64,000 nucleotides of DNA, taken from NCBI RefSeq assembly GCF_947500255.1, contig NZ_CANMRL010000009.1, forward strand, positions 4,692-68,691. The letters run 5' to 3'. Origin of the DNA: an uncultured Psychroserpens sp. (lineage in GTDB: Bacteria; Bacteroidota; Bacteroidia; Flavobacteriales; Flavobacteriaceae). The notes beneath the pieces are model-generated. The model did no database searches and was not told the DNA's origin. It worked only from the letters and a program-made list of their open reading frames with translations. Below, in pieces: positions 50,768 to 55,555 of this stretch. Every line of letters starts with the position of its first letter. Position 1 is the first letter of the stretch. The position numbers and the translations under genes are program-made.

Positions 50768-51685
50768 ATGAAGTATCTCTATATTATTAGTATTACAATA
50801 TTGTTTCTTTCCTGCGGAAATGTAAAACCTAAACATCACTATCGTATCATTTACGAATTTGAAAATTCGGAGACGGTTTCTGCTAATGATAAACAGGGAA
50901 CCATCGCTACATTAATTACTCGATTAAAACCTCTTGCTTCAGATGTCGAAGTGACATTGAATAATAAACAACAAATTGAAATCAATATTAATTCCAATGC
51001 TAAGTTAGATAGATTACAGCTTATCTTGGAAAATCGCGGACAATTAGATTTTTGGGAATGTTTACAACTAAATGACTTAAATACATTTATAATTGAAGCC
51101 ATCGGAACTTTTGCAAGTGAAGTTGATGATTCAGGATCTGCGGTAGATATAATCAAAGCACCAACTGATCATTTTGGAGCTCTCTTTTCAGTAGCAACAA
51201 AGGATACAGCAACCATTAGTAATTTTTTGAATAGGAAAGACATAAGAGCATTGCTACCTGCTGAATTGAAAAAGACAAAATTCTTATTCGGACTGCCAAA
51301 TGATATAGGTGAACGCGATGTTTATGGGATTAGATCCACTTCCAGTGGTAGGGCTTTTGTAAATGAAACCCATATTGTTAGTGCAGAACAAATCTATTCA
51401 TTCAACGATCGTCCATCCATAAGTATGGTAATGAATCAAAAGGGAGCACAACGTTGGGAAAGAATGACAGAGATAGCATATCAAAAAGGTTCTCGAATAG
51501 CTATTACAGTAAATAATATTATATACTCGGCTCCAACAGTGTCAAGTGGACCAATTAGTGCTGGTAAAACAGAAATCACAGGAGGGTTTACCTTAGATAA
51601 AGCACAAATATTAGCATTAGTTTTAAATTCACATAGACGTATTCCTAAGCTAAAGTTCGTCAACTCTTCTGCTATAAACGATTAA
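50768..51685 (+). CDS. Lipoprotein consisting only of the SecD periplasmic P1 domain
   Basis: FLSC lipobox; RGQLDFWE, SISMVMNQKGAQRWERMT, IAITVNNIIYSAPTV, ITGGFTLDKAQILALVL parallel the secDF P1 in this window; no TM helices. Confidence 0.8.
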   Translation: MKYLYIISITILFLSCGNVKPKHHYRIIYEFENSETVSANDKQGTIATLITRLKPLASDVEVTLNNKQQIEININSNAKLDRLQLILENRGQLDFWECLQLNDLNTFIIEAIGTFASEVDDSGSAVDIIKAPTDHFGALFSVATKDTATISNFLNRKDIRALLPAELKKTKFLFGLPNDIGERDVYGIRSTSSGRAFVNETHIVSAEQIYSFNDRPSISMVMNQKGAQRWERMTEIAYQKGSRIAITVNNIIYSAPTVSSGPISAGKTEITGGFTLDKAQILALVLNSHRRIPKLKFVNSSAIND

Positions 51686-51724
51686 GTGTAACAATAGATT
51701 CTTTATTTTTTATATATTTGGCGC

Positions 51725-52360
51725 ATGAATTCGAGATGGTACATTAGTATTCTCATAATAACGTTAACTTTACTAGGTAGTATAGCTAGTAATGATCAAA
51801 CGTCTGTACCTAATCAAGAGATTGTTCTACAGTTTACATCCAGCTCTATTACATCTCAGGATACGCAGCATGCGATTGCTCTTGTAAAGCAGAAACTTCA
51901 AACGGCTGATGTTAAAGATATCAAAGTACAAGAGCAGCTTAATGGACAATTAAAAATTTCTTACTACAGTAGTTCGGATGTATCCATTATAAAAGCATTG
52001 CTTTCTGAAGATGATAACCTTTCCATAGATTATGTTTCTAAAGAGGATAATCAAAACAAAGTGCCTTCCGAAGATAAAACAATCACTTACAATGTTGATG
52101 TTTATGAAATTCTAAAAGGTGATGATGCTTCAAGTTTAGATGGGAAACTGGCCTTAGAGACTAAAGCAGAAAATGATAGATTCTCAAATCCTAATAGTTT
52201 TCTATCTACAAAGAACATAGATGATAGAGCACTTAGCAGAATTGTTAAAGTCGCTTACAGATTCAATAAAAATATTGCAATCGCAATAGATAATAGGTCA
52301 CGCAAAATCCCTGAGGTTAGGGCAGGGCCTACTACAAATGTGAGTGATCTATTAAGCTAA
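51725..52360 (+). CDS. Exported protein upstream of secDF, candidate RAGP translation-arrest peptide
   Basis: N-terminal hydrophobic signal; IPEVRAGP at aa 195-202 near the C-terminus. Confidence 0.75.
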   Translation: MNSRWYISILIITLTLLGSIASNDQTSVPNQEIVLQFTSSSITSQDTQHAIALVKQKLQTADVKDIKVQEQLNGQLKISYYSSSDVSIIKALLSEDDNLSIDYVSKEDNQNKVPSEDKTITYNVDVYEILKGDDASSLDGKLALETKAENDRFSNPNSFLSTKNIDDRALSRIVKVAYRFNKNIAIAIDNRSRKIPEVRAGPTTNVSDLLS

Positions 52361-52478
52361 TTTGCTTAAGATTCCCACAATACTTTCAGTATATAATTGA
52401 GATATATCTCAATCAATTAAATGGTGATCAACTAAGTTGAAAAGCCTTACAACAATTTCATATAATTATAAAAAACAA

Positions 52479-52508
52479 TTGTCAAATTCGGTGTGAATTC
52501 TATATTTG
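52479..52508 (+). promoter_or_regulatory. sigmaA promoter directly upstream of secDF
   Basis: TTG, 19-nt spacer, TATATTTG (52501-08). Confidence 0.65.
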
Positions 52509-52540
52509 CGCGATTAAAAATTTGACCTAAAAAAAGTACA

Positions 52541-55500
52541 ATGCAAAACAAAGGACTAGTTAAGCTTTTTGCAGTGTTATTTGGATTGGTAAGTATCTAC
52601 CAATTATCATTTACATTCAAAAACAACCAAATCGATGAAGCTGCAAAGACATTTGCAGAAAGTAAATATGACAACCCAGATGATGTCAATGCAGAGGAAG
52701 TACGCTATATAGACTCGCTGTCTAATATAGAAGCTTACAATATGGGTATTGCAAGTTTTACAGGTAAAGAAGTTAAGGAGAAAGCCATGAATCTTGGTCT
52801 TGACCTTAAAGGTGGATTAAATGTTATTCTTCAAATTTCTGTTAGAGATATCCTTTTCGGTTTATCAAATAACAGTAAAGACCCAGCATTTAATAAAGCA
52901 CTAAGCGATGCTCAAGAAATTCAGAAAAATGCTCAAGAATCGTATTTAGAGTCTTTCTTTACAGCTTGGGAGGCAGTAAAAGGTGATCAAAAATTAGCAT
53001 CACCAGATATTTTTGCTAATAGAGATCTAGATGATGTTATTGATATTTCGATGACAGATGCTGATGTGAAAAACAAATTACAGGAAAAAGTAGATGAATC
53101 AATCGTTTCGGCATTTGAAGTATTACGTAAACGTATAGATCAATTTGGTGTAACATCTCCAAATATCCAACGTTTAGGAAACTCTGGTCGTGTATTAGTT
53201 GAATTACCAGGAGTTAAAGATGTACAACGTGCTACCGAATTAATTACAACCACAGCACAATTACAGTTTTGGGATGTGGCTAAACCGGGAGAGTTAGGAA
53301 CCTTTTTAAATCAAGCTAACGAAATACTTAAAGCAAAATTAGATGTTGATGAGAAAGAAGAGGCGGTAGAAGTTCAAGATACAGTAGCTACTGATAGTAC
53401 TGATACTAAAGATAGCACAATTGATGATTTATTAGGAGAAACATCTACAGATTCTACCGCTGTACAAACAGTAGTTAATCCGATAGGTGATATGATCGTT
53501 GCTGTATATCCAAACACGCAAGGTGGTTTATTTGCTATCGAATCAAGTAACAAGGAGTTGCTTGAATCTTACCTTAAAATGCCAGAGGTTAGAGCTGCAT
53601 TACCTGCAGATGCTCGTTTTACTAAGTTTGTATTTGGATTACCTTATATAGCAAATGCCGAAACTGGTATTGAGTATATCGATTTATATGCTCTCAAAGG
53701 AAATAGAGATAATGAACCAGAATTAAGCGGAGGTGTAGTAACAGATGCGCGTCAATCATTTAGCCAGAGCAACCAGCCATCAGTATCTATGCAGATGAAT
53801 GCTAAAGGTTCTAAGGTTTGGGAAGAGATGACTGGTAGAGCCAATCAAAACCAAAGTCAGATTGCCATAGTATTAGATGATATCGTATACTCTGCGCCTA
53901 CAGCATCAAATGGAGCGATTTCTGGTGGTAACACTGAGATTTCTGGAAACTTTACAGTTAAAGAAGCTGAAGATTTAGCTAATGTTTTAAGAGCTGGTAA
54001 ATTACCAGCAAAAGCTGAGATTGTTCAAGCTGATCAAGTAGGTCCTTCTTTAGGAAAAGAAGCTATAGAGAGTGGTACTAAATCATTCTTAATTGCTTTA
54101 TCATTAGTGTTGATTTGGATGATTCTTTACTATGGAAAGGCAGGTATCTTTGCAGATATCGCTTTATTATTAAACATCTTATTAATCTTTGGTGTATTAT
54201 CAGGATTAGGAGCTGTATTAACGCTTCCTGGTTTAGCAGGTATCGTATTAACAATTGGTATGTCGGTAGATGCTAACGTACTTATTTTTGAACGTATACG
54301 TGAAGAGCTTGGTAAAGGGAAGTCGCAAAAAGAAGCAGTTAAAGACGGTTTCGCTAACGCATTATCTTCAATTTTGGATGCCAACATTACAACAGGTTTA
54401 ACAGCATTAATCCTATTTGTATTTGGTACAGGACCAATTAAAGGTTTCGCAACAACATTATTAATAGGTATTTTAACATCATTATTTACAGCAATCTTTA
54501 TTACTCGTTTGTTAGTAGATTGGTATGTAAATAGTGGTAAGAAGTTGGACTTCTCTACATCGATTACTAAAAACTTATTTAAAAATAATAAGATCAACTT
54601 TATTGGTAAACGTAAAGTTGCTTATGTGGTTTCAGGAATTTTAATTGCAGTATGTTTAGGATCGTTATTTACTAATAAACTAGATCAAGGTATTGATTTT
54701 GTTGGAGGTAGAACATATCAAGTTCGTTTTGATGATGCAGTAAGTTCAGAGGCAGTTGCTAAAGATTTAACTGCAGTGTTCCAAAGTGTTGAAGTAAAAA
54801 CAATTGGTAGTGCAAATCAATTAAAGATTTCTACGAAATATAAAGTCGACGAAAACTCTGTTGAGGTTGATGAAGAAGTACAAACAATGCTTTTTAATGG
54901 ATTAAAATCATACTTGCCAGAAGGACTGTCATATGCAGACTTCTCTGAAGGTAAAAATAATATTGGTAAAGTGCTCTCTAGTAAAGTGAGTCCGACCATT
55001 GCCGATGATATTAAGAGAGAATCATTACTAGCAGTTTTAGGATCGTTAGTGGTTGTATTCTTATATATCTTATTCCGTTTTAAAAGATGGCAATTCTCAT
55101 TAGGAGCTGTAGCGGCAGTTTTCCATGATGTGATTATTGTATTAGGTATCTTCTCATTATTATACAAGTTCATGCCATTTAGTATGGAAATTGACCAAGC
55201 ATTTATTGCGGCAATTTTGACCGTTATTGGTTACTCGTTAAATGATACGGTTGTTGTATTTGATAGAATTAGAGAAGTACTTGCTGAACGTGCAGGATTT
55301 AAAGGAGGTGTAAACATCAACTCGGCAATTAATAGTACATTAAGTAGAACATTAAATACGTCGTTAACAACATTAGTAGTGTTATTGGCAATGTTCATCT
55401 TTGGTGCCGAATCACTTAGAGGTTTATTATTTGCCTTAATCGTAGGTGTTGTTGTTGGTACCTACTCTTCGGTATTTATCGCAACACCATTAATGTATGA

Positions 55501-55555
55501 CACATTAAAAAATAAAGGTATTGCGCCTCCAAAAGAGGAAGACAATAAAAAGTAA
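52541..55555 (+). CDS. secDF: Fused protein translocase subunit SecDF
   Basis: LGLDLKGG, GPSLG, IGMSVDANVLIFERIRE, GIDFVGG, GYSLNDTVVVFDRIRE. Confidence 0.97.
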   Translation: MQNKGLVKLFAVLFGLVSIYQLSFTFKNNQIDEAAKTFAESKYDNPDDVNAEEVRYIDSLSNIEAYNMGIASFTGKEVKEKAMNLGLDLKGGLNVILQISVRDILFGLSNNSKDPAFNKALSDAQEIQKNAQESYLESFFTAWEAVKGDQKLASPDIFANRDLDDVIDISMTDADVKNKLQEKVDESIVSAFEVLRKRIDQFGVTSPNIQRLGNSGRVLVELPGVKDVQRATELITTTAQLQFWDVAKPGELGTFLNQANEILKAKLDVDEKEEAVEVQDTVATDSTDTKDSTIDDLLGETSTDSTAVQTVVNPIGDMIVAVYPNTQGGLFAIESSNKELLESYLKMPEVRAALPADARFTKFVFGLPYIANAETGIEYIDLYALKGNRDNEPELSGGVVTDARQSFSQSNQPSVSMQMNAKGSKVWEEMTGRANQNQSQIAIVLDDIVYSAPTASNGAISGGNTEISGNFTVKEAEDLANVLRAGKLPAKAEIVQADQVGPSLGKEAIESGTKSFLIALSLVLIWMILYYGKAGIFADIALLLNILLIFGVLSGLGAVLTLPGLAGIVLTIGMSVDANVLIFERIREELGKGKSQKEAVKDGFANALSSILDANITTGLTALILFVFGTGPIKGFATTLLIGILTSLFTAIFITRLLVDWYVNSGKKLDFSTSITKNLFKNNKINFIGKRKVAYVVSGILIAVCLGSLFTNKLDQGIDFVGGRTYQVRFDDAVSSEAVAKDLTAVFQSVEVKTIGSANQLKISTKYKVDENSVEVDEEVQTMLFNGLKSYLPEGLSYADFSEGKNNIGKVLSSKVSPTIADDIKRESLLAVLGSLVVVFLYILFRFKRWQFSLGAVAAVFHDVIIVLGIFSLLYKFMPFSMEIDQAFIAAILTVIGYSLNDTVVVFDRIREVLAERAGFKGGVNINSAINSTLSRTLNTSLTTLVVLLAMFIFGAESLRGLLFALIVGVVVGTYSSVFIATPLMYDTLKNKGIAPPKEEDNKK

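Follow-up and report, generated by a model that had tools for sequence, protein, structure and literature searches.

The 64,000-nucleotide (nt) stretch analysed here, referred to as the window, comes from an uncultured Psychroserpens sp. of the Flavobacteriaceae and carries, directly in front of a fused secDF gene, an upstream open reading frame (uORF) whose predicted product ends in an RAGP motif and a short tail. A sequence-only reading of this DNA had proposed a SecM-like RAGP arrest peptide before secDF in Flavobacteriaceae, and had allowed that published surveys might already list the family. The arrest-peptide finding is correct and already known: judged by its sequence, the uORF is an orthologue of the in-vitro-validated arrest peptide of the group uDF_RQH_Flavobacteriales, which was described by Fujiwara, Tsuji, Yoshida, Takada and Chiba (2024, Nat Commun 15:2711, PMC10987492). 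As an arrest peptide the window example adds nothing, the group having been published and tested in vitro in 2024. The additions beyond the published description are a truncated paralogy to the SecD P1 domain, a predicted leaderless uORF mRNA, and an architecture of promoter, hairpins and stem-loop in the uORF–secDF gap that lacks SecM-style complementarity. The features are collected in Table 1.

Table 1. Position and character of the features at the uORF–secDF locus of the window (amino acids, aa; predicted local distance difference test, pLDDT; minimum free energy, MFE).
Feature	Position	Strand	Description
ORF305	50768..51685	+	Lipoprotein-like (lipobox LSCGN); SecD P1 paralogue covering both base and head; closest relative of the uORF
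Promoter P1	51713..51720	+	Predicted, Bacteroidetes-type; -7 box TATATTTG, then GCGC, then the uORF ATG
uORF	51725..52360	+	211 aa, ATG start; putative uDF_RQH_Flavobacteriales-group arrest peptide and truncated SecD P1 paralogue; its family spans at least 440 clusters (50% identity)
N-terminal signal or signal-anchor	51731..51790	+	Residues 3–22; hydrophobic stretch with conserved W5, Y6, L10 and G18; helix 3–22 in the AlphaFold2 model
Ferredoxin-like alpha/beta domain	51815..52108	+	Residues 31–94 plus strand 122–128; pLDDT ~84; related to the N-terminal SecD P1 base at profile level
C-terminal region	52094..52330	+	Residues 124–202; putative truncated SecD P1 head homologue, predicted to be mostly disordered
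Arrest core R199-A200-G201-P202	52319..52330	+	Codons AGG GCA GGG CCT; invariant in loci and proteins; predicted stall point
HP1	52339..52379	+	Two-tier hairpin starting 9 nt past the Pro codon; stop codon in the apical loop; MFE fold
HP2	52396..52413	+	ATTGAGATA/TATCTCAAT; fold and inspection of 81 gaps
HP3	52429..52439	+	CAAC/GTTG; fold and inspection of 81 gaps
Promoter P2	52479..52508	+	Predicted secDF promoter; TTG at 52479–52481, 19-nt spacer, TATATTTG at 52501–52508
Stem-loop enclosing the P2 -7 box	52481..52526	+	Outer helix GTCAAAT (52481–52487)/ATTTGAC (52520–52526); inner helix 52491–52494/52508–52511
secDF	52541..55555	+	Fused, 1004 aa; NF009585 at 1341 bits; Pfam SecD_SecF_C, SecDF_P1_head, SecD_1st; presumed regulated gene

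A probable arrest-peptide gene in front of secDF

The predicted uORF product begins with MNSRWYISILIITLTLLGSIAS and ends with ...SRKIPEVRAGPTTNVSDLLS*, in which KIPEVRAGP is followed by nine further residues. The extent of the reading frame, the position of the RAGP codons nine codons before the TAA stop (52358–52360) and the location directly upstream of secDF, from which the uORF is separated by 180 nt, were confirmed from the sequence as the earlier reading had given them. Homologues were compared in 81 genomic loci, made up of the window and the 80 best of 353 species genomes with relatives in a genome scan, and in two protein sets: 120 proteins listed of 580 relatives from a first homologue search, and 145 further representatives listed of 440 clusters at 50% identity. 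The full hidden Markov model (HMM) scan covered 1.84 billion representatives.

RAGP is retained in 120/120 proteins of the first set, with tails of 2–12 aa, and in 145/145 of the second, with tails of 2–16 aa. The two sets together give 265 of 265 proteins with an unchanged motif and a variable tail, and RAGP is also present in 81/81 loci, which is the pattern that the sequence-only reading had suggested seeking in an alignment. At the DNA level, the 81 loci use six different codons for Arg and four each for Ala, Gly and Pro, and residues 203–204 are freely variable. As the residues are invariant and their synonymous codons are not, what selection maintains is the amino-acid sequence of the motif, and its conservation is far beyond chance. 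Among 26 sequences of 45–68% identity, P196, V198, R199, A200, G201 and P202 are invariant, and the tail downstream varies in both sequence and length. The Arg of the motif lies within the narrow range of residues 190–202 across the 81 loci; correspondingly, the spacer of ~175 residues between the N-terminal signal and RAGP is nearly fixed in length.

The gene is also fixed in its surroundings. secDF lies immediately 3′ of the uORF and on the same strand in 80/80 related loci, across a gap of 124–352 nt, and mdh lies further upstream. Where named, the 580 relatives all belong to Flavobacteriaceae (Psychroserpens, Formosa, Seonamhaeicola, Mangrovimonas, Wocania and others), and the closest locus among the best 80 of 353 is that of Psychroserpens luteolus (L001), at 97% identity. 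Database sources label the homologues hypothetical. Five of the listed proteins (P0022, P0055, P0074, P0076 and P0081) have non-conserved N-terminal extensions of 10–25 residues, which probably reflect wrongly assigned starts, since the shorter form has M1, W5 and Y6 conserved.

Fujiwara et al. searched 30,175 genomes for small uORFs preceding secA, secDF or yidC that combine a localisation signal with a conserved C-terminal motif. Their RQH family comprises RAPP-like motifs grouped by bacterial order, and uDF_RQH_Flavobacteriales is one such group (PMC10987492). The uORF of the window has the features of this group: it precedes secDF in the same orientation; it encodes fewer than 300 aa and is unannotated, no Pfam or NCBIfam family scoring above threshold; it starts with a secretion signal or transmembrane (TM) segment, seen as conserved hydrophobic residues 5–22; its RAPP-like motif lies within the last 40 residues and more than 30 residues after the signal (residues 199–202 of 211); and its organism belongs to the order Flavobacteriales.

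The tested representative (PMC10987492) is a 204-aa protein of Aequorivita sublithincola, cloned as residues 19–204 from the synthetic fragment uSecDF_Aequo_subli. It stalls ribosomes in vitro, and the arrest is lost with R199A or GP201AA. The published primers translate to YKIPEV-A-AGPLT, ITSYKIPEV and VRAGPLT, with ITSYKIPEV(R>A)AGPLT as the mutagenesis form, and the C-terminus rebuilt from them reads ITSYKIPEVRAGPLT, ending at residue 204, with R199 and G201-P202 in place. The comparison with the representative covers its last 15 residues and residues 19–25, as read from primers, and these agree with the consensus of the family, with its residue numbering and with a length of 204 aa. The representative and the window ORF have in common the SxKIPEVRAGP module and the R199/G201/P202 numbering. 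Within the family, SYKIPEVRAGP is the commonest variant (48 of the 120 listed proteins) and 204 aa is a common length. From the shared module, numbering and length it follows that the window ORF should be counted as an orthologue of the published peptide. The two agree in their place directly before secDF, their length of ~204–211 aa, the N-terminal signal, RAGP at 199–202 after S-x-K-I-P-E-V and the short tail, and differ in nothing essential, the window tail having nine residues versus two in the representative. A literature search found no later work on the flavobacterial group.

Toeprinting placed the third motif residue in the P site for every RQH member tested (PMC10987492). By analogy with its published orthologue, the window peptide probably acts as a Sec-linked arrest peptide that stalls at Gly201/Pro202. 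SecM of Escherichia coli is similarly built: it has a signal sequence and a long spacer, its gene lies before a sec gene, and it arrests at an RAGP core when Gly occupies the P site and Pro-tRNA the A site. However, the two are not homologous: the single window protein matches no SecM model in Pfam or NCBIfam, SecM precedes secA whereas the window uORF precedes secDF, and the tunnel residues are FxxxxWIxxxxGI in SecM and KVAYKxxxxIAIAIDNxSxKIPEV in the window family. SecM senses export, which for the window peptide may be supposed by analogy. VemP of Vibrio and ApdA/ApdP are likewise arrest peptides with export signals encoded upstream of secDF, and ApdA/ApdP, from Actinobacteria and Alphaproteobacteria, have an RAPP core and stall at its third residue. 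Their sequences are nevertheless unrelated to the window uORF, and VemP has a different, longer arrest motif.

Domain architecture and relationship to SecD P1

The protein was modelled with AlphaFold2 from an alignment with 60 homologues (mean pLDDT 60). The export signal proposed from the sequence is supported by the conserved hydrophobic N-terminus and by its modelled helix. The folded part is a beta-alpha-beta-beta-alpha unit to which a further strand is added; its mean column identity is 54–55%, with PNQ, Y80, S82 and D125 invariant. Residues 100–117 and 133–191 are of low confidence, and pLDDT falls below 50 over 133–191. The last ~28 residues of the arrest region read KVAYK....IAIAIDN.S.KIPEVRAGP. 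From the model, the final folded element ends ~73 residues before Gly201, a distance that would roughly suffice for the chain to pass through both the ribosomal tunnel and SecYEG. If the domain emerges and folds in the periplasm as RAGP reaches the peptidyl-transferase centre, this would explain the nearly fixed spacer length. An alternative role of the C-terminus as a sorting signal, with a motif, TM segment and basic tail, was ruled out, as the tail can be as short as two residues.

The sequence-only reading had noted a loose resemblance of the N-terminal domain to the SecD P1 base. The resemblance proved real at the profile level only, and it extends to the P1 head. Compared as a single protein with Pfam and NCBIfam, the uORF gives sub-threshold SecD matches only (E 0.003–0.008), and a Pfam scan of 75 individual members gave weak SecD-TM1 matches in nine and nothing else consistent; similarity to the SecD P1 superfamily is thus present in profiles, with single sequences below Pfam thresholds. 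Foldseek against the PDB returned generic ferredoxin-like folds, none at E <=0.001 and none of them SecDF, so the fold alone is no proof of a SecD relationship. A profile search of PDB sequences gave nothing meaningful, the top match being the C-terminus of Spo0J (E 0.023).

An HMM of the uORF family was searched against 1038 ORF segments from the window and the 80 related loci; after 81 self hits it made 67 matches below E 1e-3, all of them to SecDF or ORF305 paralogues. The best scores were E 3e-12 for ORF305 and E 1.3e-10 for SecDF, and the top unrelated ORF reached E 0.03. Both proteins are matched as two collinear pieces, the P1 base and the P1 head: HMM positions 47–104 align to SecDF ~193–256 (base), and positions 126–206 to ~379–459 (head). 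In hhalign, the uORF and ORF305 families align over 181 collinear columns (probability 96%, E 3.5e-9); a second profile–profile run gave E 7e-10, with reversed-sequence controls at E >=0.017. The uORF family aligns with the N-terminal half of SecDF over the P1 head at E 4.7e-5. IAIAIDNRSRKIPEVRAGP of the uORF family stands opposite IAITVNNIIYSAPTVSSGP in ORF305 and IAIVLDDIVYSAPTASNGA in SecDF. The likeness to the SecD P1 domain (SecD_1st, PF21760; SecDF_P1_head, PF22599) and to ORF305 is thus one of collinear profile homology from the signal/TM segment to SAPxVxxG, and the difference is that the uORF has no membrane domain, has a truncated and predictedly disordered head, and ends in an arrest motif.

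ORF305 itself matches Pfam SecDF_P1_head at E 7.5e-15 and NCBIfam NF009585 at E 9e-36, and lies between mdh and the arrest-peptide gene. An ORF305-like segment occurs 5′ of the uORF in 22/80 related loci, with a full-length ORF in 18, so ORF305 is an optional extra SecD-derived gene.

On these profiles, the arrest peptide is identified as a truncated paralogue of the SecD signal/TM segment, P1 base and partial P1 head. The truncation would fall at the head motif YSAPxVxxGxIxGG, which appears to have become KIPEVRAGP, since PEVRAGP aligns with SAPxVxxG. In this alignment P196, V198 and G201 (and P202, which ORF305 also has) would be inherited, and R199 and A200 new, ORF305 and SecD having S-S or S-N at these positions. 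This shared ancestry raises another account of the motif, namely that there is no arrest on the native ribosome and that PEVRAGP is kept for a structural or binding role in a protein resembling SecD P1, as its alignment with the P1-head motif and the three residues in common would allow. That account is very improbable. R199 and A200 are invariant though they are the two residues missing from SecD and ORF305, the domain stops right behind the motif, disorder is predicted for the segment, and the tail past P202 varies. RAGP is, moreover, described in the literature as a depleted, arrest-prone tetrapeptide across bacterial proteomes, and a homologue arrests in vitro in a manner abolished by the two motif mutations (PMC10987492).

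Fujiwara et al. (PMC10987492) prefer a scenario in which RAPP-like arrest peptides arose several times independently. The present family offers a concrete route by which one could emerge, through duplication and truncation of the export-competent domain of the regulated gene itself. Two substitutions, from SS or SN to RA, would suffice to turn P-x-V-S-S-G-P into P-E-V-R-A-G-P. If true, the sensor derives from the very domain whose activity it monitors. The SecD P1 paralogy, the internal secDF promoter, the leaderless arrangement and the gap hairpins go unreported in the available portions of PMC10987492; the SecD P1 origin and the unusual leader architecture are leads of specialist interest.

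Predicted promoters and RNA elements at the uORF–secDF gap

The promoter consensus of Bacteroidetes is TTG...TAnnTTTG, with TAnnTTTG as the -7 box. The sequence TATATTTG-GCGC-ATG, in which the box lies exactly 4 nt before the uORF start, occurs in 67/81 loci, and from the known -7 consensus transcription would start at or next to the ATG. The uORF mRNA is therefore predicted, from sequence alone, to be leaderless or near-leaderless. The remaining 14 loci share a different upstream sequence, and there the uORF may be co-transcribed with the preceding gene.

A promoter of secDF had been placed at 52501 by the sequence-only reading, and TATATTTG indeed begins there, 40 nt before the secDF ATG. 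TA..TTTG, nearly always as TATATTTG, is found in the gap of 63/81 loci, 40–69 nt before the secDF ATG in ~60 of them, and the TTG, 19 nt upstream of the box in the window, lies inside a conserved AATTGTCAAAT. A promoter of its own, P2, is thus predicted for secDF. Many loci have a CA-rich tract (ACACAACAACAC-like) ahead of P2. A scan for sigma-70 promoters and terminators found no terminator. Across the loci, the gap contains no conserved intrinsic terminator, with weak, scattered candidates in 10/81 versus 43/81 upstream of the uORF; the upstream terminator is taken to belong to the gene before the uORF, which is mdh in loci without ORF305.

Just past the motif, folding suggests an RNA element. 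Over 80 distinct sequences, the first eight positions after the Pro codon (+1 to +8) pair less than shuffled controls, and at +9 to +13, where HP1 begins, the mean pairing probability is 0.53–0.73 versus 0.42–0.45 for shuffles; the HP1 site is paired in the MFE fold of 50 of the 80. Counted from the first P-site nucleotide of a ribosome stalled with Gly201 in that site, +9 is at about +15, and the start of HP1 is predicted to coincide with the leading edge of this ribosome. The HP1 nucleotides (GGGAU...AUCCC, UUAGC) persist both as coding sequence, in long-tail loci, and past the stop, in short-tail loci. When the first 50 nt after the Pro codon were compared between short-tail loci (2 aa; L004, L005, L009–L011, L015) and long-tail loci (9 aa; the window, L006, L008, L012), the two forms differed only in where the stop codon falls within otherwise conserved nucleotides. 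The tail therefore appears to be shaped by an RNA element and not by the protein. Hairpins with different sequences stand at sites equivalent to HP2 and HP3 in relatives, and Rfam gave chance snoRNA matches only over 51600–52700.

The stem-loop around the P2 -7 box shows covariation. In its outer helix 93% of cells are complementary, with G-U and compensatory variants, and the inner pair 52492:52510 occurs as AU (13), CG (12), UG (12), GU (10) and GC (6), with five unpaired. The covariation score was reached by 0/500 shuffles and exceeded that of all slid registers; the test was made on a hand-proposed structure. Because wobble pairs point to RNA, transcripts starting upstream of P2 appear to be under selection. 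The predicted promoter and the RNA-type covarying stem-loop thus coincide.

In sixteen loci (L004, L005, L007, L011, L012, L015–L018, L023, L030, L031, L033, L034, L036 and L042), an extra hairpin (e.g. CUUCCG-loop-CGGA or CUCCCG-loop-CGGG) follows directly on the P2 -7 box, ~15–45 nt before the secDF ATG. This puts the hairpin where the P2 transcript is predicted to begin, and its arms resemble the GGGAU of HP1 and the conserved ACUUCCG 3′ of HP1.

Proposed coupling to secDF and leader variants

The model favoured here begins with a leaderless uORF message that would be transcribed from promoter P1 and read through into secDF, P2 giving basal expression; read-through is suggested by the lack of a conserved terminator in the gap together with RNA covariation across it. 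At the stall, peptidyl-tRNA(Gly201) would occupy the P site (52325–52327) and Pro202-tRNA the A site (52328–52330), a position taken from the published toeprint. The last ~28 conserved residues would then fill the exit tunnel, the N-terminal signal or anchor would be engaged with SecYEG, and the ferredoxin-like domain of ~100 residues, ~73 residues away from the peptidyl-transferase centre, would just have reached the periplasm. As this domain is translocated and folds, with help from SecDF, the resulting force on the nascent chain would end the stall, so that poor export would mean a longer stall and more SecDF synthesis. The stalled ribosome would abut HP1, and stalling would change how the read-through transcript folds or how stable it is. 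Absolute synteny, the signal sequence, the SecM/VemP/ApdA/ApdP analogy and the indications of read-through tilt the balance, by a modest degree, towards a uORF that senses export and raises SecDF.

Several observations weigh against this model. The arrest of the published representative is efficient on Bacillus subtilis ribosomes and weaker on E. coli ribosomes, and arrest-dependent induction of secDF is demonstrated, in the available portions of PMC10987492, for uDF_RQH_Enterobacterales only. As P2 is conserved between uORF and secDF, much secDF mRNA may lack the uORF. For the P2 region RNAalifold yields no shared fold, and the predicted folding of the gap in the window is barely more stable than that of shuffled sequences (z -1.29). 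A search for RNA-seq or metatranscriptome runs covering the window, a Dokdonia locus and a Cellulophaga locus turned up none that could be used to confirm co-transcription. RNAduplex of the stall-proximal RNA gave a mean z of 0.08 against the secDF start, with 4/81 loci below -2, and a mean z of 0.23 against the 5′ arm of the P2 stem.

SecM melts a hairpin that hides the Shine–Dalgarno sequence of secA, whereas the window locus has no equivalent pairing and its secDF has its own predicted promoter. Since stall-to-start complementarity is missing, direct unmasking of the secDF start by the stall is probably not the route, and at this locus the one prediction of the SecM-type unmasking model that could be tested is not borne out. 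The arrangement that marks a strict monitoring substrate (SecM, VemP, MifM), in which stall-proximal mRNA masks the downstream start, was not seen beyond the level of shuffles across the 81 loci. Coupling of the uORF to secDF is the least certain part of the model. Bacteroidota mostly do without Shine–Dalgarno pairing in initiation; given this, the internal promoter and the lack of a start-masking helix, a stall would probably reach secDF by a route other than start unmasking.

In one such route, the arrest would control secDF through the fate of the RNA, either because stalled and queued ribosomes protect the read-through transcript, as in ermC-type systems, or because they alter Rho-dependent termination. 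The predicted leaderless uORF mRNA, the position of HP1 against the stalled ribosome, the lack of both an intrinsic terminator and anti-start-site pairing, and a phylum largely free of Shine–Dalgarno dependence are all consistent with it, as are the CA-rich tract ahead of P2 in many loci and a gap that is rich in C and A and poor in G. This proposal is, however, purely inferential, and the stop codon lies only 6–27 nt past the stall site, so that a difference in Rho loading is not obvious; it is considered rather unlikely. A wider proposal, in which the sensor arose by duplication and truncation of the 5′ portion of secD, RAGP derives from SAPxVxxG, and a leaderless mRNA, hairpin and promoter stem-loop couple it to secDF independently of Shine–Dalgarno pairing, is put forward tentatively, with doubt somewhat outweighing confidence.

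It is also conceivable that the arrest is real and secDF is not regulated by it. The product would then be a SecD-like accessory protein, with a membrane anchor and a P1-base-like domain, secDF would be expressed essentially from P2, and the pause would serve the protein's own biogenesis or tether the uORF–secDF mRNA and its ribosome to the translocon, as XBP1u does in eukaryotes. Conservation of P2 in most loci fits this view, as does an N-terminal domain that is better conserved and folded (pLDDT ~84) than the usual spacers of monitoring substrates; so do the nearly fixed spacer length and the failure to find an RNA switch towards the secDF start. Yet an unregulated secDF would leave unexplained the absolute same-orientation synteny in 80/80 loci, the covariation in the gap, which implies selection on a read-through transcript, and the lack of a conserved terminator 3′ of the uORF. 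In addition, all characterised sec- or yidC-linked arrest peptides are cis-regulators (PMC10987492). This explanation is regarded as improbable, and export-sensing control of SecDF remains the preferred reading.

Leader organisation varies among the loci. Those without ORF305 (e.g. L018–L021 and L024–L027) have a strong intrinsic terminator, AAAGACTGTAGAAATACAGTCTTT plus a T run, ~80 nt 5′ of the uORF; taken as that of mdh, it runs straight into the uORF promoter. Four loci from Wocania and Hwangdonia (L028, L044, L054 and L060) are organised differently: the TATATTTG box is absent in L028 and lies 111, 161 and 113 nt from the ATG in L044, L054 and L060, respectively, and L044 additionally carries TAAATTTG at 52 nt. 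In these loci a G-rich element of the GUGGGAAAC type stands ~25 nt 5′ of the secDF start codon; in L028 it could pair with the CCCAC adjoining TTGTCAAAT.

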